Positions 1,380 to 57,241 of a stretch of DNA of 64,000 bases are shown here, one piece after another (position 1 is the first letter of the stretch; each line of letters opens with the position of its first letter). The DNA comes from Candidatus Nomurabacteria bacterium. Its GTDB lineage: Bacteria > Patescibacteriota > Minisyncoccia > Phycocordibacterales > UBA9973. Under the pieces are notes generated by a model that worked only from the letters and a program-made list of their open reading frames with translations, did not search any database and had not been told where the DNA came from. Where the stretch lies: contig JAHFNO010000006.1 in NCBI GenBank assembly GCA_023267275.1, forward strand, positions 9,519 through 73,518, given 5' to 3'. Made by a program: the position numbers and the translations under genes.

Positions 1380-1424
1380 AATCAATAAACAATTGAACAC
1401 GGGAACAAGAAAGCAAAACACACA

Positions 1425-4105: not shown

Positions 4106-4933
4106 ATGGCTGACGAAGTAAAAAAAGTACCTGTTGTCTCTAGTACAACAAACACTCCATCGGTAAACGATCCTCAGTTTGACGAAATAAAAAGTGAGCT
4201 TTTTACTCGTTTCGAACTTCTTCCTGATGATATCAAAAAGGCAATTACTGATGACGGATACCAAACAAAACTCCTCACTATTGCAAAAGAACAAAAAATG
4301 ACCTATGAAGAACTTGGTATACTGGAGACAGAAACAACGATGGTACTTCTTGGAATGACAAAACCTGAAGATTATCGCGATGAACTGCAATTGCAATTGA
4401 AAAAGAACGATGCAGATATCGATACCTTGGTAAAAAAAGTAAATGAACAGGTATTCCTTCCTATCCGCGCATCACTTGAACGAGTATACGCAGCAAAAAA
4501 GGAACCAGCAGATTATATTCCGGAAAGTATTGTTACTGGGGTTGTAGAAAAAACACCTCCCACCACCCCGCCTGGAGTACCAGTCACCCCTCCTCAGGCA
4601 GGAAGGGAAATAATGAGCACACTGTCCACACAAGACAAATCAATTCTTGAAAAAACTGGTGTGGTGATCAATGAAACAAAACCTACTCCCAACCCTGTGC
4701 AAACTGCAGGAGTTGCAAATCGTAATGATTTGCTGAAGGGAATAGAAAACCCTCCAAAAGCACCGGTCATTGGAATGATGGCAAGCAAACTCAACACTAC
4801 CGGGCCAGCCATGCCAACAAAATCGACCGATTACTCAATATTGAAAAATGCGAGTACTCCACCTCCCACAAATATTCCTGTCGCACCAAAAACACAAGGA
4901 TCTGATCCGTATCGGGAACCAATCGGACACTAG
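4106..4933 (+). CDS. Hypothetical protein (helical N-terminus, Pro/Thr-rich C-terminus ending DPYREPI)
   Basis: 275-aa ORF within the secretion cluster; TGcTACAAT upstream. Confidence 0.8.
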   Translation: MADEVKKVPVVSSTTNTPSVNDPQFDEIKSELFTRFELLPDDIKKAITDDGYQTKLLTIAKEQKMTYEELGILETETTMVLLGMTKPEDYRDELQLQLKKNDADIDTLVKKVNEQVFLPIRASLERVYAAKKEPADYIPESIVTGVVEKTPPTTPPGVPVTPPQAGREIMSTLSTQDKSILEKTGVVINETKPTPNPVQTAGVANRNDLLKGIENPPKAPVIGMMASKLNTTGPAMPTKSTDYSILKNASTPPPTNIPVAPKTQGSDPYREPIGH

Positions 4934-5013
4934 AACAAGAAAACATAAAAACACGAGAACAAAAAATACAATTGTTCTCGTGTTTTGTTTTCATGATCTT
5001 GTGCTCTAGTGAT
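4927..5013. repeat. Inverted pair of 8-nt-period arrays (AACA-type then TGTT-type)
   Basis: acactaga acaagaa acataaaa acacgaga acaaaaaa ... ttgttctc gtgttttg ... ttgtgctc tagtgata. Confidence 0.7.
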
Positions 5014-5024
5014 ATAATGACTCT

Positions 5025-5429
5025 ATGCGATTTTCTGTTCCACAATTTATTGATGTTGAGGACAAAATTTTTGGACCGCTCACGTTCAAACAATTCGTCT
5101 ATCTTGTAGGTGGGGGAGGAATGGTTTTTCTTTGCTATAAATTCTTGCCTTGGTATCTTTGGATCCCTCTTGGTCTTGGATTCGGCGGTCTCGGATTTGC
5201 ACTCGCCTTTGTTAAGGTAAATGAAAAACCGCTCATCAATACGATAGAGGCAATGTTCAATTACGGTATCAATGACAAGCTCTACGTTTGGAAGAAAGAA
5301 CACCCAACCAAAAAATCACAAGAACAAAAGAACAAGGAACAAGAAGTGCCCGTTCAATTACTCCCCCGAATTTCAGAATCCAAGTTGCACGATATAGCTT
5401 GGGGACTTGATGTTCTTGATAAGAGCTAA
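5025..5429 (+). CDS. PrgI family membrane protein
   Basis: VPQFIDVEDKIFGPLTFKQF motif followed by two TM helices; precedes VirB4. Confidence 0.85.
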   Translation: MRFSVPQFIDVEDKIFGPLTFKQFVYLVGGGGMVFLCYKFLPWYLWIPLGLGFGGLGFALAFVKVNEKPLINTIEAMFNYGINDKLYVWKKEHPTKKSQEQKNKEQEVPVQLLPRISESKLHDIAWGLDVLDKS

Positions 5430-5472
5430 AAATAAAATAACACAAGAACACTAAAACAAAAGAACAAGATAT

Positions 5473-5838
5473 ATGCAGGGAAATACTTACAGAGAAACAC
5501 TTAAAAATAAAATGGATCAGTATGTTCATTTTATTTATGGGATAACGAAATCATTTCCAAAAGAAGAAATATTCGGTTCAGTTTCTCAAATACGTAGGGC
5601 GGGGCTTTCTGTTGTTTTGAATTATACGGAGGGTTATGCACGAAGAAAACCCTTGGTTCTACTAAACTTTTATGAGATTGCATATGGCTCTCTTCAAGAG
5701 TCAAAATATTTACTTTTGTTTGCAAAAGACGAAAAATATATACCTGAGGATATATACAAAAAAGGAGAAATTATGGCAAACGAAATAGGTGCAATGCTTT
5801 GGAAAGAAATTCAATCAATAGAAAAATCTATTAAATAA
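5473..5838 (+). CDS. Four helix bundle protein (23S rRNA-IVP/Avd-like)
   Basis: ITKSFPKEEIFGSVSQIRRAGLSVVLNYTEGYAR...IAYGSLQESKY matches the family pattern FPxEExxGxxSQxRRAxxSxxxNxxEG. Confidence 0.9.
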   Translation: MQGNTYRETLKNKMDQYVHFIYGITKSFPKEEIFGSVSQIRRAGLSVVLNYTEGYARRKPLVLLNFYEIAYGSLQESKYLLLFAKDEKYIPEDIYKKGEIMANEIGAMLWKEIQSIEKSIK

Positions 5839-5884
5839 CAATTTTTGATTTAATGTTCTCTTGTTCTGGTGATATACTGTTCTC

Positions 5885-6541
5885 GTGGCTATCAGCGCAA
5901 CAGCAACTCAAGAATTTGTTCCAATCAAAGAAGTCCGTGAAGGAACCATCGTTCTTAAAGATGGTGGTCTCCGGGCTATTATTGCCGTCTCATCAGTAAA
6001 CCTTGCCCTCAAATCAAGCGACGAGCAAATTGCAACAATCAATCAATTTCAGTCATTTCTCAATTCGATCGATTTTCCTATTCAAATAGTTATTCAATCT
6101 CGCCGTCTTGATATTCGACCATATCTCCTTATGCTCGAAGGCAAAATGAAAGACCAGCACGAACCTCTCCTTAAACTACAGACCGCTGGATATATTAGTT
6201 TCATTCGTGAATTTACCGAACAAGTCGCCATCATGCGCAAATACTTTTACGTAGTTATTCCCTATGAAGAAGCAGCGATTTCAACAAAAAAAGGTTTTTT
6301 GGGTGGAATTTTTGGGAACAAACAATCTGGACAGACAAAACAAATGGCTGAAAATGCAAGCTTTGAAGAAAAGCGAACACAACTTGATGAGCGCGTAAGT
6401 GTGATCGCAAATGGACTTGGCAGTGTTGGTGCTCGTACTGAGCGCCTGCAAACGGAGGAGGTGATCGAGCTCTTCTACAAGACATTCAATCCTGGAGATA
6501 TTCAACCTGCAGTAAAACTCGCCGAAGTAGTAAATCAATAA
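5885..6541 (+). CDS. VirB4-associated protein (TraC/TraE N-terminal-like)
   Basis: TQEFVPIKEVREG...VSSVNLALKSSDEQ...FLNSIDFPIQI; lies between PrgI and VirB4; GTG start 6 nt after TATACT. Confidence 0.7.
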   Translation: MAISATATQEFVPIKEVREGTIVLKDGGLRAIIAVSSVNLALKSSDEQIATINQFQSFLNSIDFPIQIVIQSRRLDIRPYLLMLEGKMKDQHEPLLKLQTAGYISFIREFTEQVAIMRKYFYVVIPYEEAAISTKKGFLGGIFGNKQSGQTKQMAENASFEEKRTQLDERVSVIANGLGSVGARTERLQTEEVIELFYKTFNPGDIQPAVKLAEVVNQ

Positions 6542-6644
6542 CCAATGAAACGCAAAAACACCAGAACAACTAAACAACAAATGCAAAAACAAGAATGTCT
6601 TTCTGGTTATTATTGTTTTAATGTTTTTATGATTTACTGATTTT

Positions 6645-8495
6645 ATGTTTTCACTATTTGGAAAAAAGAAAAACCCAGCTGGGGAATCAACCCACATTCA
6701 GGCAAACGCAATGCCTATTTTTCCTGAGCAAATTTACGAAGCAGCCTCACTTGAACTCAAAGACATCATCGCTCCTTCAGCACTCAAAATCGAACCAAAA
6801 TCAATCAACCTTGGAGACAAAATTGCACGTACCTATTTTGTTATTTCCTACCCATCAACACTCACCGACAATTGGCTCTCTCCAGTCATCAACCTCGACA
6901 AGGTATTTGATATTTCAATAACAATTCATCCTGTAGAAACTGCACAAATTCTTCGTCAATTTCAAAAGAAAGTAGCCGAGGTACAAAGCCAAATCATGGA
7001 ACGTGAAGCAAAGGGAATGGTGCGCGACCCAATGCTCGATATGGCGAACAAAAATCTTGAGGATTTGCGCGACCGTCTCACTCAAGCACAAGAAAAAATG
7101 TTTGATGTTGGACTCTATCTCACGATTTACGCCGATAACGAAACTGAATTGTATAAAATTGAAAATGAAATCAAATCAATTCTTGAATCAAAACTCATTT
7201 ACTTTAAGCCTGCACTCTTTCAGCAAGATGATGGATTTAAGAGCGTGCTTCCACTTGAAGACGATCGTTTACAGATATACCAAAAGCTCAATTCGGAGCC
7301 ACTCTCGAGTTTTTTCCCATTTGTTTCGTTTGACCTTACGAGTGACAAAGGAATTCTCTACGGTGTAAACCGCCACAATTCCTCACTCATTATTTTTGAC
7401 CGTTTCAGTCTCGACAACTACAACTCAATTATTTTTGCTACATCGGGTGCTGGAAAATCATACGCCACAAAACTCGAAGTGATTCGTTGTCTCATGTTCG
7501 ATACCGAAGTGATTGTTATCGACCCAGAACGTGAATACGAACGTCTCGCCGAAGCACTCGGTGGACGCTACTTCAATATTTCGCTCAACTCTGGAAGTCA
7601 CATCAATCCGTTTGACCTTCCGCTTCCTGGAGAGGGGGAGACGGGTAATGACGTGCTTCGCGGAAATGTCATCAATCTTGTTGGACTCTTTCGTATCATG
7701 CTTGGCGGACTTACTGCCGAAGAAGACGCGCTCGTTGATCGCGCCATAATGGAAACATATGCGGTTAAAGACATCACTCCGGATTCTGATTTTTCTCAAA
7801 TCGAACCGCCGCTTCTTTCCGATTTCGAAATGGTACTCTCGGGCATGGAAGGAACTGAATCAATCGTTTCTCGTCTTTCAAAATATACCCACGGTTCGTG
7901 GGCAGGGTTTATCAACCAGCCATCAAACGTAGACATCAACAAAAAATTTGTGGTTTTCTCTGTGCGCGACATGGAAGACGACCTCAAACCTGCAGCCATG
8001 TATATCGTGACCCACTTCATTTGGAACGAAGTTCGTAAAAATATCAAAAAACGACTGCTTGTAGTGGATGAGGCATGGTGGATGATGAAATCCGACGATA
8101 CTGCCTCGTTCTTGTACTCGATTGCAAAGCGCGGCCGCAAATATTTCTTAGGACTTGCCACAATCACTCAAGACGTCGGAGATTTTATGAAGAGCCCATA
8201 CGGTATTCCAATCGTTACGAACTCATCACTGCAACTTCTCTTGAAACAATCGCCATCAACGGTAGATGTATTGCAAAAAACATTCAACCTCACTGATGAA
8301 GAGAAATATCTGTTGCTTGAATGTAACAAGGGGGAGGGAATCTTCTTTGCTGGACTCAAACATGTGGCGATTAAAGTGATTGCCTCGTACACAGAAGACC
8401 AGCTCATCACAAGCGACCCGTCACAAATCCTAGCATTACAAAAATCAAGAACAGAACTCGCAGAAGCTGTATCTGGAACACCTCCGGTTCAATAA
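6645..8495 (+). CDS. virB4: VirB4-like type IV secretion ATPase
   Basis: Walker A ATSGAGKS, VIDPEREY, INPFD, Walker B LLVVDEAW, RGRKY, ITQD. Confidence 0.9.
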   Translation: MFSLFGKKKNPAGESTHIQANAMPIFPEQIYEAASLELKDIIAPSALKIEPKSINLGDKIARTYFVISYPSTLTDNWLSPVINLDKVFDISITIHPVETAQILRQFQKKVAEVQSQIMEREAKGMVRDPMLDMANKNLEDLRDRLTQAQEKMFDVGLYLTIYADNETELYKIENEIKSILESKLIYFKPALFQQDDGFKSVLPLEDDRLQIYQKLNSEPLSSFFPFVSFDLTSDKGILYGVNRHNSSLIIFDRFSLDNYNSIIFATSGAGKSYATKLEVIRCLMFDTEVIVIDPEREYERLAEALGGRYFNISLNSGSHINPFDLPLPGEGETGNDVLRGNVINLVGLFRIMLGGLTAEEDALVDRAIMETYAVKDITPDSDFSQIEPPLLSDFEMVLSGMEGTESIVSRLSKYTHGSWAGFINQPSNVDINKKFVVFSVRDMEDDLKPAAMYIVTHFIWNEVRKNIKKRLLVVDEAWWMMKSDDTASFLYSIAKRGRKYFLGLATITQDVGDFMKSPYGIPIVTNSSLQLLLKQSPSTVDVLQKTFNLTDEEKYLLLECNKGEGIFFAGLKHVAIKVIASYTEDQLITSDPSQILALQKSRTELAEAVSGTPPVQ

Positions 8496-8522
8496 AACAA
8501 AAAATCACGAGAACACTAGAGC

Positions 8523-8553
8523 AAAAAGCCCCGCGCTACGCGCGGGGCTTTTT
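8523..8553. terminator. Intrinsic terminator hairpin
   Basis: aaaaagccccgcgc-tac-gcgcggggcttttt, centred in an 8-nt repeat array pair. Confidence 0.8.
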
Positions 8554-8600
8554 GTTACTTTTTGTTTTTATGTTCATTGTTCTAGTGATATACTGTTTCT

Positions 8601-11412: not shown

Positions 11413-12687
11413 ATGTCTCGAAAAACAATTCTTATTCTCATTGCAATTCTCCTCGTCGCACTCGGTGTGTGGTTCTATTTTTCGAGCGGAACTCCTTCAG
11501 GAACAAATTCTTCTGGAACACAAAAAAGTCTTTTGAGTTCTCTTTTTCCTTTTGGCGCGGGGACCAACAATCAACAGAACATAAAAACACAAGAACAAGG
11601 AACAACAAATCCAACTGAAGAGACTCAGAGCTCGAATACTCCAGATAAACTCATTCAAATATCAAATCGATTGGTTGCTGGTTTTATTCCACTTGTCACA
11701 GACACTACACCCATCATTAAACACGACATTGGTGGCGGACCAGAGTCACAGATTACTCAAAGTATTTTCCCAACAGTTCGTTTTGCCGAAAAAGGCACGG
11801 GGTACATTTACGATATTGATGTAAAAGGACAGAACGAAAAAAAGATTTCTGAAACAGTGATCGCTCGAACAGCAGAAGCTCTTTTTGCAAACGGTGGTGT
11901 CAACGTATTGCTCCGCTATATTAAAACCGACAATACAACTATTGCCTCATTCCTCGGCACTGTTACAGCACCAGCAAATACCAATGCGGTCGGCACACTT
12001 ACTGGAAATTTCCTTGAGGAAAATATTCCGACTGTCACAACATCACCTGACAAAAAGAATTTTCTCTTTTTAATACCAACAAACACGGGTATCGCTGGTA
12101 TCAGTATGAAAGGCGATGGAAGCGGTAAGAAGCAATTGTTTACGAGTTCTTTCTCTGAATGGCTCCTCGATTGGGGAACGAGCCCAATGCTTACCAGCAA
12201 GGCTTCTAGCACTGTTCCTGGCTATGCATACACTGTACTTGCCGGTGGATCACTGCAAAAAGTACTGGGCAATATAGATGGCCTTACTACAAAGATTAGT
12301 CCGGATGGAAAGACACTACTCTATAGCGTTTCTGGTGGAGGAAGTCTCAATTTACACATCCTAACGCTAAAAACCGGAGTTGATACAAATACCGGTCTTA
12401 CAACACTTCCGGAAAAATGTACTTGGAATACAACGAGTACTGTCGTTTATTGCGGAGTAGGTACGGCAATAGTATCAGCAGAATATCCTGACTCATGGTA
12501 CAAAGGTGTCACTCATTTCACAGATTCATTTTGGAAAATAGACACAACCACAAAAACCACGACGGAAATAAATACGGGGGAGGGAAACAATCTTGATGTA
12601 ATAAATCCAAGCATCGACCCAACTAGTCAATATCTTATTTTCATAAACAAAACAAACGGTAGTCTTTGGTCTTTACAACTCAATTAA
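11413..12687 (+). CDS. Membrane-anchored beta-propeller (TolB/WD40-like) protein
   Basis: N-terminal TM, SPDKK/SPDGK blade motifs; start moved to ATG 11413 (MSRKTILIL). Confidence 0.75.
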   Translation: MSRKTILILIAILLVALGVWFYFSSGTPSGTNSSGTQKSLLSSLFPFGAGTNNQQNIKTQEQGTTNPTEETQSSNTPDKLIQISNRLVAGFIPLVTDTTPIIKHDIGGGPESQITQSIFPTVRFAEKGTGYIYDIDVKGQNEKKISETVIARTAEALFANGGVNVLLRYIKTDNTTIASFLGTVTAPANTNAVGTLTGNFLEENIPTVTTSPDKKNFLFLIPTNTGIAGISMKGDGSGKKQLFTSSFSEWLLDWGTSPMLTSKASSTVPGYAYTVLAGGSLQKVLGNIDGLTTKISPDGKTLLYSVSGGGSLNLHILTLKTGVDTNTGLTTLPEKCTWNTTSTVVYCGVGTAIVSAEYPDSWYKGVTHFTDSFWKIDTTTKTTTEINTGEGNNLDVINPSIDPTSQYLIFINKTNGSLWSLQLN

Positions 12688-12703: not shown

Positions 12704-12857
12704 ACAATGAATTACCCCGAGCTTACGCTCGGGGTATCTTATATAGAAATACAGCAAAGCTGTATTTCCTTGTGTCCAGAGAGCCCAGGACACAAGAACT
12801 CGCTGCATCACGCGACCTTACGGTCGCGGTATTGGGTGGAAGCCCAGCGTAATAAAA
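12704..12857. mobile_element. 154-bp multi-hairpin element, copy 1 (MITE/REP-like)
   Basis: Identical to 28866-29019; contains 4-5 palindromes. Confidence 0.75.
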
Positions 12858-12860
12858 CAA

Positions 12861-12893
12861 AAATCAAAACCGCGCCTGGCGCGGTTTTGATTT
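12861..12893. terminator. Bidirectional terminator hairpin
   Basis: aaatcaaaaccgcgc-ctg-gcgcggttttgattt between convergent genes. Confidence 0.8.
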
Positions 12894-12924
12894 AGTGTGT
12901 TTATGATTTCTTGTTCTGGTGTTT

Positions 12925-13398
12925 TTATGTTCTTGTGTCTCGATATCGAATAACAATGTGTCGTTTCATTCCATCACCCGCTGATTCGGTGTACACATCA
13001 GGGACTTCTCCGAGGAACTCGTGAATGATGCGGCGTTCGTGTGGAGGCATTGGGTCGAGATCAACACTTGATTTAAAATACCGTGCGCGTTCTGCCATCA
13101 TGTGTGCGATGGTTTTTAAATTGTCGATTTTCTTTTTCTCAACATTATTTGCATCAATCACCACACGTGGTCGAACTGTTTCTTCACGCATGATTTGTTC
13201 AACAACTTTTGTTGCCAAGTGATTGAGTGCAGTGAGTGCTTCACCATCACGATTTGAAAGAAGGCGAGTGTGCGGGGAAGTAATAGAAAACCAAATAGTA
13301 TTCATTTTCTCATCATACGAAACAGTAACATCAGCCTCAGTAAAACCGAGTTGAGCAAGCATGCCTTTTATATATGTATGTATTTGGTCGTGTTTCAT
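12925..13398 (-). CDS. jag: Jag/KhpB-type KH-R3H RNA-binding protein
   Basis: DGEALTALNHL (KH), PMPPHERRIIHEFL...TESAGDG (R3H); canonical position after yidC. Confidence 0.85.
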   Translation of the reverse strand: MKHDQIHTYIKGMLAQLGFTEADVTVSYDEKMNTIWFSITSPHTRLLSNRDGEALTALNHLATKVVEQIMREETVRPRVVIDANNVEKKKIDNLKTIAHMMAERARYFKSSVDLDPMPPHERRIIHEFLGEVPDVYTESAGDGMKRHIVIRYRDTRT

Positions 13399-14200: not shown

Positions 14201-14310
14201 TGGGTCATTATATCACTAGAGCACGAGAACATGAAAACAAATAAAACCACGCCAGGCGCGGTTTTATTATATCGTGTTTTTATGATTTTTTGTTCTGGTG
14301 TTCTTGTGGT

Positions 14311-14592
14311 TCATGGAACCAGGTCTACACCTGGTGTATTGCGTGGATTACAACGAAGAAGTCGTTTTGATCCTAGATAAACACCTTTGATGGTGCCGTG
14401 TTTTTCAATAGCTTGCTTCATATATTCAGAGCATGTCGGGTAGTACATACACACCTTCCGATTAAGACCAAAAAATCGTGGAATACGTCCGGTGTCAAAA
14501 GACAAGAACTTTTGGTAAAAGATAATCAAAAATATAAAGGGTTTCTTAGAAATTGTGGTCACTGTTTTTATGATCTTTTGTTTATTGTTCAT
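14311..14592 (-). CDS. yidD: Membrane protein insertion efficiency factor
   Basis: CMYYPTCSEY...AIEKHG...RLLRCNP...GVDLVP. Confidence 0.93.
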   Translation of the reverse strand: MNNKQKIIKTVTTISKKPFIFLIIFYQKFLSFDTGRIPRFFGLNRKVCMYYPTCSEYMKQAIEKHGTIKGVYLGSKRLLRCNPRNTPGVDLVP

Positions 14593-15129: not shown

Positions 15130-15326
15130 AGAGCCAATATAGCACAAGAACATAAAAACACAAGAACAATAAAACAAAAAATATGAAAACCTGACTTATA
15201 GCTATAGGGTGTGTGTTGGTGGTCTAATGTTCCTTTGTTCTTGTGATTATGGTTCTTGTGATCTTGTAATTTAGTGTTCTATTGAATTTTTTGTTTTCAT
15301 GTTCATTTGTTCTTGTGTTATATTGG

Positions 15327-15346
15327 TTACCCACAGGTTATCAACA
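15327..15346 (+). promoter_or_regulatory. Two DnaA boxes upstream of dnaA
   Basis: TTACCCACA (15327-15335) and TTATCAACA (15338-15346), each 1 mismatch from TTATCCACA. Confidence 0.7.
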
Positions 15347-15538: not shown

Positions 15539-16900
15539 ATGGATACAAAAGAACTCTGGGACCACTGTTTAGTCGAGATTGAAAGTGAAGTTTCAAAGGC
15601 TAATTTCAGTACTTGGTTTAAAAACACTTCATTAGTAAAAGAAGATGCCGGAACGGTGTTTGTTGGTGTGCCAAATGAATTCGTCAAAGACTGGCTTTCA
15701 AACAAATTCCACAAACTCATCATGCGCGTACTCCGAAACGCATGGGAACACACTCGCAATGTTGAATACATGGTAGTAAAAGGCGATCCAAAGTCGCACA
15801 AAATTGAAGTTTCAAGCCAATTGAAGCCAGATTTTGCTATCAGCCAAGAACTTCCTCTCAAAGACCTCTATGTAAACAAGGATGACAACCTCAATCCTCG
15901 TTATACGTTCGATACATTCATCGTTGGACCATTCAACGAGCTCGCATATGCTGCCACACAAGCTGCAGTGGCTCGTCCAGGTAAGCAATACAACCCGCTT
16001 TTCATCTATGGATCGTCTGGTCTTGGAAAAACCCACCTCATTCAAGCAGTAGGGAATGCTATCAAGGAAAAATATCCAGAAAAAAAGGTGTACTACATCA
16101 CGCAGGAAAAATTTACGGTTGATTACATCAACTCAGTACAATCAAACCGTGGTGCTGGAAATACTTTTAAGGAAAAATATCGTAAGTATGATGCGATTAT
16201 TATTGACGACGTACAACTTGTAGGAAAAGCGGAAAAAACCCAAGAAGAATTATTCCATTTATTCAACAGCTATCACGAAGCAGGGAAGCAGATTGTCTTT
16301 TCTTCTGATAAACACCCAAACTTTATTCCGGGATTGGAAGATCGTATGCGCACTCGTTTTGCGCAGGGTATGATAGTGGATATTACCGAGCCTGAATATG
16401 AGTCTCGTCTCGCAATTTTACGTTCAAAAGTACAAGAACTTGGACTCAACCTTCCAGATGAGCTTATGGAATACATTGCAAGCGCTATTGCCGGTAATGT
16501 GCGTGAGCTCGAGGGTAGTTTGAATGCAATCGTGCTTCAATCTCAACTCAAAGGACGTTTTCCAACACTCCTTGAAACAAAAAACCTTCTAAAAAATAGT
16601 ATCAAACAAAAGAAAACCGCTTCCGTAAAAGAAGTAGTGAAGACGATTGCTGACTTTTATAATGTAGAAGAGGCTTCTATTTACGAAAAGACTCGCCGAA
16701 AGGAGATTGTGAAGGTTCGCCAAATCGTGATGTTTATTCTCCGTGAAGATTTTAGTGTGTCATATCCACTTATTGGACAAAAACTCGGGGGAAAAGATCA
16801 CACCACTGTTATCCATTCATGCTTAAAAATAAAGAACGATATGAAAAACGACATGCTTATTGCTCAAGAATTAGATCAAATACGGGCATTGTTCAAATAA
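15539..16900 (+). CDS. dnaA: Chromosomal replication initiator DnaA
   Basis: LNPRYTFDTF, YNPLFIYGSSGLGKTHL, QEELFHLFN, NVRELEG, GGKDHTTVIH. Confidence 0.99.
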   Translation: MDTKELWDHCLVEIESEVSKANFSTWFKNTSLVKEDAGTVFVGVPNEFVKDWLSNKFHKLIMRVLRNAWEHTRNVEYMVVKGDPKSHKIEVSSQLKPDFAISQELPLKDLYVNKDDNLNPRYTFDTFIVGPFNELAYAATQAAVARPGKQYNPLFIYGSSGLGKTHLIQAVGNAIKEKYPEKKVYYITQEKFTVDYINSVQSNRGAGNTFKEKYRKYDAIIIDDVQLVGKAEKTQEELFHLFNSYHEAGKQIVFSSDKHPNFIPGLEDRMRTRFAQGMIVDITEPEYESRLAILRSKVQELGLNLPDELMEYIASAIAGNVRELEGSLNAIVLQSQLKGRFPTLLETKNLLKNSIKQKKTASVKEVVKTIADFYNVEEASIYEKTRRKEIVKVRQIVMFILREDFSVSYPLIGQKLGGKDHTTVIHSCLKIKNDMKNDMLIAQELDQIRALFK

Positions 16901-18319: not shown

Positions 18320-18580
18320 ATGAAACAACTTAGCGAATTTTTAGAGCGATTTATAAAACTCGCACAATCAAGCGATGATGCAAAACAAGCAATCATTGAT
18401 GCCTTACAACAATCAGGTGTTCGGGTAAATGGGGGATTAGAAAGTGTTGTGATTCGCGGGACGATAGCCACACTTAAACTAAGTCCAATTCAAAAAAGCG
18501 AAGTGTCACTCCGACAAGCAAAAATTATTGCGCTCCTAAAAGAAAATCCCTTAACCAAACACCTCACAGTAGTGAGGTGA
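18320..18580 (+). CDS. Small protein, possibly DciA/DUF721-like
   Basis: 86 aa after dnaN; VVIRGTIATLKLSPIQKSEVSLRQAKIIALLKE resembles the DUF721 strand-strand-helix pattern. Confidence 0.5.
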   Translation: MKQLSEFLERFIKLAQSSDDAKQAIIDALQQSGVRVNGGLESVVIRGTIATLKLSPIQKSEVSLRQAKIIALLKENPLTKHLTVVR

Positions 18581-18600
18581 ACAAAAGAACAATAATTAAA

Positions 18601-18631
18601 AAAGCACCGCGGGCGAAGCCCGCGGTGCTTT
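18601..18631. terminator. Bidirectional terminator hairpin
   Basis: aaagcaccgcgggc-gaa-gcccgcggtgcttt between convergent genes. Confidence 0.8.
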
Positions 18632-18678
18632 TGTTCTTGTGTTCATTGTTTTTATGTTCTTCTGAAGATATAAATATT

Positions 18679-22623: not shown

Positions 22624-22687
22624 AGTCACAAGAACAAAAGATCATCAGAGTATAAAAACACGAGAGCAGATAATATAAAAACAAAAA

Positions 22688-22720
22688 ATACAAACCCCGC
22701 GCCTGGCGCGGGGTTTGTAT
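22688..22720. terminator. Bidirectional terminator hairpin
   Basis: atacaaaccccgcgc-ctg-gcgcggggtttgtat. Confidence 0.8.
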
Positions 22721-22759
22721 TAATGTTCTAGTGATTATTGTTCTCGTGTTCTAGTGATT

Positions 22760-23578: not shown

Positions 23579-23590
23579 AATGTCTAATAA

Positions 23591-23971
23591 CTAATTTCTA
23601 ATTTCTAAAGAATTCGCCTTTGACTTGAGCGAAATGGTAACAAAGATTTTTCGAAGTTCTTCAGCTTCTTTGTATAGTTTTTCTAATTCAGTTCTATGAA
23701 CTTCTGTTTCAATAAGTAGTCGCAACCAGTACTCTGTTTCCTGAGCTTCTTTTTTGCAAATACCAATTTTATGTTCAAAATCCTTTCTTGACTCAGCTCC
23801 ATCAGCCTCATGATAGTTTGCACCAATGCTTGTTCCGGAGCGAATACATTGCAAAATTAAATTTTGGTTTGTCATATTCCTTTGTATTTTTTTGAGAGAA
23901 AAGATTAGATTCTTGCTAAACAAAAAAGTTCTTTCTTTCAAATCATATTTTTTTGTATTGCCATTAGACAT
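23591..23971 (-). CDS. Four helix bundle protein (23S rRNA-IVP/Avd-like)
   Basis: YDLKERTF.F...QCIRSGTSIGANYHEA..AESRKDF.HK..I..KEA.ETEYWLRLL. Confidence 0.92.
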   Translation of the reverse strand: MSNGNTKKYDLKERTFLFSKNLIFSLKKIQRNMTNQNLILQCIRSGTSIGANYHEADGAESRKDFEHKIGICKKEAQETEYWLRLLIETEVHRTELEKLYKEAEELRKIFVTISLKSKANSLEIRN

Positions 23972-23996
23972 TAGAAATTAGAAGTTAGATATTGGG

Positions 23997-57089: not shown

Positions 57090-57241
57090 GAATAGGGTCT
57101 CGCCCGTATCATAAAATAATCACGTAAACCACAAGAGTACTAAAACAAGAGAACATAAAAACAACAACAAATGCCCCTAACGGGGCATTTGTTGTATACT
57201 GTTTTTGTATTTATTAGCTAATATCTAGAGCCTAATTATCT

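Follow-up and report, generated by a model that had tools for sequence, protein, structure and literature searches.

Between prgI and the gene for a TrsD-like partner of VirB4, the window (the entire stretch of 64,000 nt analyzed here) encodes a four-helix-bundle protein whose gene is bracketed by inverted arrays of an 8-nt unit. The gene is an insertion-like cassette that is patchily present and occupies differing sites, and further arrays of its unit are dispersed over the source genome (G000), which has a size of 1.02 Mb. We give an even chance to the explanation that protein and repeats together form a selfish system working like RAYT/REP, in which a putative pentamer recognizes its own units on DNA and seeds arrays. 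As for the arrays themselves, putative cognate binding sites are the reading that best fits the data.

The initial annotation of this DNA had described inverted 8-nt arrays with a four-helix-bundle gene between them, and both arrays are indeed present where it had placed them. The left arm (5430..5469, plus strand) comprises five 8-nt units with an approximate consensus of RAHCANNR and runs from the stop codon of prgI to 3-4 nt before the ATG of the four-helix-bundle gene (5473..5838, plus strand, 121 aa), which is defined by its open reading frame, a profile match, and a structure model. The right arm (5843..5887) also has five units, which belong to the left-arm family on the minus strand, and ends in the GTG with which the trsD-like gene begins. 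Profile searches identify the neighbors of the cassette as PrgI (PF12666; upstream host gene at 5025..5429, plus strand), the TrsD-like protein (a match below cut-off; downstream host gene at 5885..6541, plus strand), and VirB4. The best inverted match between the arms joins 5441-5469 with 5859-5887 over 29 nt at 79% complementarity, and its score was attained in 1 of 5000 base shuffles. In both arms the strongest period is 8, which was attained by 24 and 8 of 5000 shuffles.

One stretch that had been written as a repeat unit, 'ggtgatat', does lie within the right arm, but it also holds an extended −10-like element, TG-N-TATACT (5870..5878, plus strand), located 6 nt 5′ of the trsD-like start codon. 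This element is conserved in congeners: of 15 genomes of the genus, 12, among them the source genome, have TATA[AC]T at a distance of 5-9 nt upstream of the trsD-like start codon. Part of the right arm is therefore host sequence. The element is likely a leaderless promoter of the trsD-like gene that was absorbed by the arm, or onto which the arm was fitted; it was not among the matches listed by a consensus promoter scan. No promoter of its own was found for the four-helix-bundle gene. A joint skipping the cassette was found in none of 15/24 joints examined in contigs of three DNA runs from one study, a type of data that cannot show absence.

The encoded protein matches PF05635 (E 5e-25, 88.2 bits versus a cut-off of 33.8) and TIGR02436 (E 1e-24, 86.4 bits versus a cut-off of 24). 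A single-sequence model of the protein reached a pLDDT of 49, and an alignment-based model (pLDDT 95.8), which displays four helices, was used in its place. The structures closest to this model are those of Xcc0516 (2GSC; Z 19.5, rmsd 1.9) and BT_0352 (2RLD; Z 18.5, rmsd 1.4), which places the protein in the four-helix fold; they are followed by Avd (PDB 4DWL and 8UB7; Z 15.1-15.9, rmsd 1.5-1.6), whose profiles score the protein under their cut-offs (PF22296, 32.9 versus 40; NF033474, 27.4 versus 80). Both 2GSC and 2RLD contain five chains, and 2GSC has been termed a homopentamer (PMC4990558); by analogy, the protein is likely a five-subunit ring. Its closest named homologs are mostly from Patescibacteria, and together with the genome size of 1.02 Mb this makes it likely that the host belongs there too. 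A phage collection yielded no match, and plasmid matches comprised 21 records, mostly cyanobacterial; of two that were inspected, one has both arms and the other a downstream array only.

That the gene sits between PrgI and the VirB4 partner like an insertion, as had been suggested, is borne out by related genomes. The trsD-like gene is found in 14 congeners, and in 13 of these prgI lies within the fetched locus, making 13 scorable. The cassette gene is missing from the prgI/trsD-like junction in 12 of them: ten have a spacer of 15-99 nt with no four-helix-bundle gene, and two (L013/L014, from G006 and G013) have a different small-gene cassette, which we take to be GIY-YIG-like, bounded by palindromic inverted repeats. 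In G004, an ortholog (62%) follows prgI within an inverted segment, in which both prgI and the orthologous cassette are flipped relative to the flanking 275-aa gene and trsD (G004:C49:2149-3055, L042). One breakpoint of this inversion is at an arm, and a misassembly or recombination between arms is a possible cause. The order of genes near prgI is labile, prgI being found downstream of the trsD-like gene at locus L033 (G021). None of 15 more distant loci has the gene at the junction, and two of them display, by eye, gene-less inverted pairs of other units. In G013, other cassettes of the family occupy both adjacent junctions, where the source genome has gene-less 8-mer pairs.

The inverted flanks are a property of the family. 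The ten PF05635 matches in the source genome represent eight genes, with one frameshifted gene and one gene split over two contig ends each counted once; all eight have inverted arms of 7-9-nt units, and the unit is different for each. The window contains a second such cassette (23579..23993, minus strand) with its own 7-nt unit, AATNNCT. Another, between rnc and the next gene (G000:C21:38365-38674), has 9-mer arms around a frameshifted four-helix gene, and its unit has 23 genomic arrays. The enrichment of periodic inverted flanks around family members that the initial annotation had predicted was found in the source genome, at one threshold, for 4 of 6 testable family ORFs versus 6 of 1027 other ORFs, several of the latter bordering gene-less arrays on inspection. 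It was found again in a wider set of 104 family loci, 4 of which were skipped for short flanks: at 82 of the remaining 100, the inverted flanks outscore all 30 shuffles, and at 90 the inverted score exceeds the direct one. Requiring at least 3 units per arm left 77 cassettes and removed 5; their period is 7 in 64 cases and 8 in the other 13, and the median arm has five units.

The predicted co-variation of protein clade and repeat unit also held. The more identical two proteins are, the more alike are their arms (Spearman 0.37 across 2891 non-syntenic pairs, with a filter that let through some same-site pairs; 0 of 2000 permutations). Since co-inheritance alone predicts such co-variation, the correlation is no demonstration of binding. 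In a quick protein tree with many unresolved forks, the window's protein clusters with three others whose arms are of its own unit family (SH-aLRT 85); two members of this clade, L067 and L068, adjoin unrelated genes. The four closest proteins, at sites that are unrelated, have one and the same unit family. The arm design may reach beyond four-helix genes, as a GxxExxY gene (TIGR04256) with a duplicated stretch upstream also lies inside periodic inverted arms (G000:C11:9160-9561, L183).

Arrays of the eight units are found genome-wide in numbers of 14-69 per unit, compared with 0-2 in shuffles; these counts include the cassettes' own arms, related families overlap, and one training unit was shortened. 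For the seven units other than the 8-mer, the range is 14-44 arrays each (again 0-2 in shuffles), and for the 8-mer one profile gave 78 arrays (2-4 in shuffles), a profile built from the cassette arms alone 69, and a strict consensus 58. Most arrays are solo, and they are concentrated at stops and starts. Fourteen of the 8-mer occurrences are short gene-less pairs, in all of which the A-rich arm comes first, and the 8-mer arms of the source genome often bracket a terminator-like hairpin. Identical array pairs number 0-1 per family, so the arrays are not the near-identical copies that characterize an IS or MITE. Adjacent units are less alike than shuffled ones in three of five families tested and more alike in two; adjacent units that differ beyond chance would not be produced by plain slippage.

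Many of these arrays surround the cassette. Gene-less inverted pairs of its 8-nt unit are located between the 275-aa gene and prgI (4925..5014), between the trsD-like gene and virB4 (6548..6650), around a terminator-like hairpin after virB4 (8495..8575), and around a short palindrome (14211..14311). Further along the window are a gene-less pair with a third array upstream of dnaA (15140..15328), a short gene-less pair that encloses a hairpin and lies between convergent genes (18579..18644), and a gene-less pair around a hairpin (22632..22759). Two arrays on the plus strand lie in coding linkers, one in that of prgI, where the length is unchanged versus congeners (5298..5337), and one detected by the 8-mer unit scan (11569..11600). 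Solo arrays fill a junction that in three congeners measures just a few bases (1387..1418, plus strand), lie between convergent genes (12885..12940, minus strand), or were again detected by the unit scan (57127..57166, plus strand).

Several features of individual arrays deserve description. A near-perfect 8-mer expansion of 20 units spans the distance from a stop to a start codon (G000:C22:64638-64797). Near-identical gene-less pairs of a 9-nt unit (~95 nt) flank rplO (G000:C17:17478-18073), with a third similar pair at 16356; these pairs are the only MITE-like copies seen. When the 8-mer units are written in the register AACA-NNNN, bases 5 and 8 co-vary as C..G or T..A (79 and 57 of 231 units), and the same co-variation is found in L067 and L068. 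Adenine-specific mutagenesis was considered as a source of unit variation; in the unit tables, variable positions occur on both strands. A family of GC-rich palindromes between or beside arms (window positions 8495-8575, 12840-12890, 14240-14270, and 22690-22720) may represent a separate REP-like repeat or terminators.

Comparison across genomes revealed that the dialect of dispersed arrays is that of the cassette residing in the same genome. The 8-mer pattern has 125 matches in the source genome and at most 9 in 80 family genomes. G004 has 34 matches to its own dialect, compared with 2-3 in four congeners. Two genomes with close homologs have 27 and 19 matches; for two genomes of the sister clade, where the arms have 7-nt units, the counts are 1 and 0. 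The count of 8 in G111 is at control level (7 control matches). We had considered G052, with 8 pattern matches and a 47% homolog, as support for the association; that homolog has 7-nt arms, and the genome therefore counts against it, as do G013 and G006.

At orthologous junctions in congeners, 8-mer arms are mostly missing. Twenty-eight arrays of four families lie inside called ORFs, some of which are doubtful. Three array-bearing genes, uvrB, leuS, and ligA, were compared with those of congeners. In uvrB, a 27-nt in-frame insertion is present in 2 of 6 genomes, and the order of units differs between the two. In leuS, a stretch longer by 54 nt, in frame, corresponds to a whole inverted pair that is missing in four congeners, and the empty form of the site resembles, by eye, both units. 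In ligA, the array is a same-length replacement. No target-site duplication was apparent at uvrB or leuS, where the empty alleles compared come from other species. Judging from these alignments, arrays look as if they arise by homology-assisted insertion or overwriting, not by cut-and-paste.

In the selfish system that we propose, the four-helix-bundle gene would depend on read-through transcription from the host operon for its expression, and each subunit of the putative pentamer would bind one of the protein's own units on DNA. A single strand around a five-membered ring would, as a rough estimate, have 7-8 nt per subunit. Reading of one unit per subunit is made plausible by Avd, all five protomers of which take part in binding a stem-loop, with flipped-out bases being read between protomers (bioRxiv 2023.10.23.563531). 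The cassette's protein would keep the two arms or ends together or anneal them; because it has no evident catalytic motif, we assign the chemistry to the host, whose recombination, repair, or reverse-transcriptase activity would mobilize the cassette or seed arrays. Targets with a prior resemblance to a unit would receive the new arrays, and in this way the cassette and gene-less arrays of its unit would be spread by the protein's action. A bolder extension, which we put forward tentatively and consider somewhat improbable, is that a new class of selfish elements is driven by four-helix-bundle proteins, which would also be the source of bacterial heptamer repeats and, in this role, ancestral to both DGR Avd and the proteins of 23S intervening sequences. 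In such a class, a five-subunit ring would read a private 7-9-nt unit and write arrays of 4-5 units at microhomologous sites, by insertion or overwriting and with no transposase of its own.

The initial annotation had also raised the possibility that the arms pair to loop out the ORF, and an intervening sequence acting at the level of mRNA is an explanation that we regard as unlikely. Its arms would pair in the transcript, and either excision by RNase III or a stem keeping the upstream stop beside the downstream start may render the insertion harmless; the protein would bind an RNA arm and repress its own translation. Such pairing is energetically possible: as RNA, the arms pair in both the MFE and the centroid folds (z −3.9) and can thus form a stem, as the complementary termini of 23S intervening sequences do, and 19 of 19 bases pair between the arms of the G004 cassette. 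The genome has two RNase III matches, and the 23S intervening sequence of Coxiella has an RNase III-cut 28-bp stem and heptamers before its ORF (PMC4990558). Left arms of family cassettes often terminate at an ATG, 55 of 77 cassettes share their orientation with both neighbors, and the in-order arm match of filled cassettes is slightly above that of permuted units (mean z 0.49, 50 of 77 positive), a weak order-specific signal.

However, the signatures of a selected RNA stem are missing. The arm mismatches of family cassettes show no G·U excess of the kind expected of an RNA stem (G·T 75 versus A·C 102 in the 100-locus set; 83 versus 117 in the 77-cassette set), and there is no wobble asymmetry, the unit composition being equal whichever strand is transcribed. 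In the 14 gene-less pairs, cognate arms match no better than non-cognate ones (scores of 14.1 versus 16.1 for permuted partners). The predominance of solo arrays also argues against an intervening sequence, as does the occurrence of three 7-mer families on mRNA in both orientations (8:10, 8:9, and 9:7). The likely leaderless promoter within the right arm would, moreover, make coupling of the trsD-like gene to the upstream stop needless. Each arm appears to be held to the unit consensus independently, as binding sites would be, and from these sequence patterns we infer that selection probably acts on the DNA and not on the RNA. In the 8-mer family, the A-rich strand is favored on mRNA by 22:6, which selection for A-rich leaders could explain; together with the 55 of 77 co-oriented cassettes, this bias points to a role for transcription.

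It likewise seems improbable to us that the gene is a mere passenger between simple repeats driven by the host or by mutation, through slippage and recombination, with a unit that is common by descent only. The 20-unit near-perfect array demonstrates that slippage occurs, and the near-identical 9-mer pair on both sides of rplO, the GxxExxY gene with similar arms, and arrays present where the cognate gene was not found (8-9 pattern matches in G013, which is 100% complete, G006, and G052) all agree with such a passenger. On the other hand, one genome holds eight separate units, each mapping to one family gene, and its arrays are fixed in length (four units in 19 of 26, 29 of 40, and 17 of 20 arrays of three 7-mer families; a mode of five units, 22 of 58, in the 8-mer family) and adhere strictly to a degenerate consensus. 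The dissimilarity of adjacent units in three of five families and the polar residues that are invariant over 60 aligned proteins of the family also speak against it.

A domesticated regulator or chromosome organizer, which would adjust transcription, translation, or chromosome structure by binding arrays gained through ordinary selection on host sequence and with no selfish process, is very improbable: a conserved −10-like element does coincide with part of the right arm, arrays gather at stops and starts, same-length replacements occur in ligA and prgI, and such a network has been proposed for TAACTGA repeats (MacGregor 2015, PMC4679880), but the arrays are lineage-specific at orthologous junctions, whole inverted pairs are inserted in frame in leuS, and the family is patchy, the query protein being matched in 8 of 16 genomes of the genus.

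The selfish protein-plus-repeat reading brings together a protein family without known function and the unexplained excess of tandem 7-8-nt arrays in bacteria. If the protein recognizes and spreads its own repeat, it would help to explain these long-puzzling 7-8-base repeats; if its ring reads one unit per subunit, it would be a compact, retargetable sequence reader. A single 1-Mb genome provides eight protein-unit pairs, a ready cross-specificity matrix. The arrays also alter promoters, and essential enzymes such as UvrB and LeuRS gain loops from them.

Elements of this picture have precedents. Avd of diversity-generating retroelements (DGRs) has the same fold and is a nucleic-acid-binding pentamer (bioRxiv 2023.10.23.563531, PMC6182149), whereas the cassette protein lies below the Avd cut-offs and the reverse transcriptase matches are on other contigs, none adjacent to it. 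We also considered, and dropped, a connection with the DGR reverse transcriptases of the genome: these have Avd genes of their own, nothing was found in support, and no periodic arms occur around the two true Avd genes. The two loci of DGR-type reverse transcriptases, at which the Avd genes are reversed, are at G000:C22:67385-68770 and C31:46260-47597. The account of the TAACTGA repeats of Beggiatoaceae differs in naming no four-helix protein (MacGregor 2015, PMC4679880). In Xanthomonas, GGGAATC heptamers form 186 arrays, mostly of four units, with 70 cases in convergent pairs (Rehm 2015, PMC4692102). The supplement of that paper lists a four-unit array, with no partner arm, that overlaps the start of xcc0516 next to bccP; xcc0516 is the gene of PDB 2GSC, the structure closest to the cassette protein. 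The heptamers are read there as G-quadruplex motifs, and the main text contains neither 'S23' nor 'four helix'. Parts of the present picture, namely the heptamers of the Coxiella 23S intervening sequence and the gene-less pairs of Xanthomonas, are thus already in print; their connection was not found published, no paper linking the four-helix family to heptamer arrays being found in the literature searched, with subscription papers and bioRxiv supplements outside reach.

Two known systems resemble the cassette most directly. The 23S intervening sequence with its S23p ORF in Coxiella burnetii shares with it the protein family, complementary termini, and heptamers just before the start codon (Warrier 2016, PMC4990558); it differs in being inside a 23S rRNA gene, whereas the cassette lies between the protein-coding genes prgI and trsD-like, has an imperfect stem, and has repeats that are dispersed genome-wide. 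RAYT/REPIN systems differ in their protein, an HUH/Y1 transposase, compared with a four-helix bundle like 2GSC and Avd here; indeed, the PF01797 matches of the genome lie elsewhere. REP sequences are palindromes, in contrast to the tandem 7-9-nt units of the present families (8-nt at the cassette), and the arrays of a cassette are not mutual copies and its gene often changes site. In its overall organization, the cassette nonetheless follows RAYT/REPIN, with a short gene flanked by its repeats, dispersed gene-less inverted doublets and singlets, and several repeat groups per genome (Bertels and Rainey 2011, PMC3337134).
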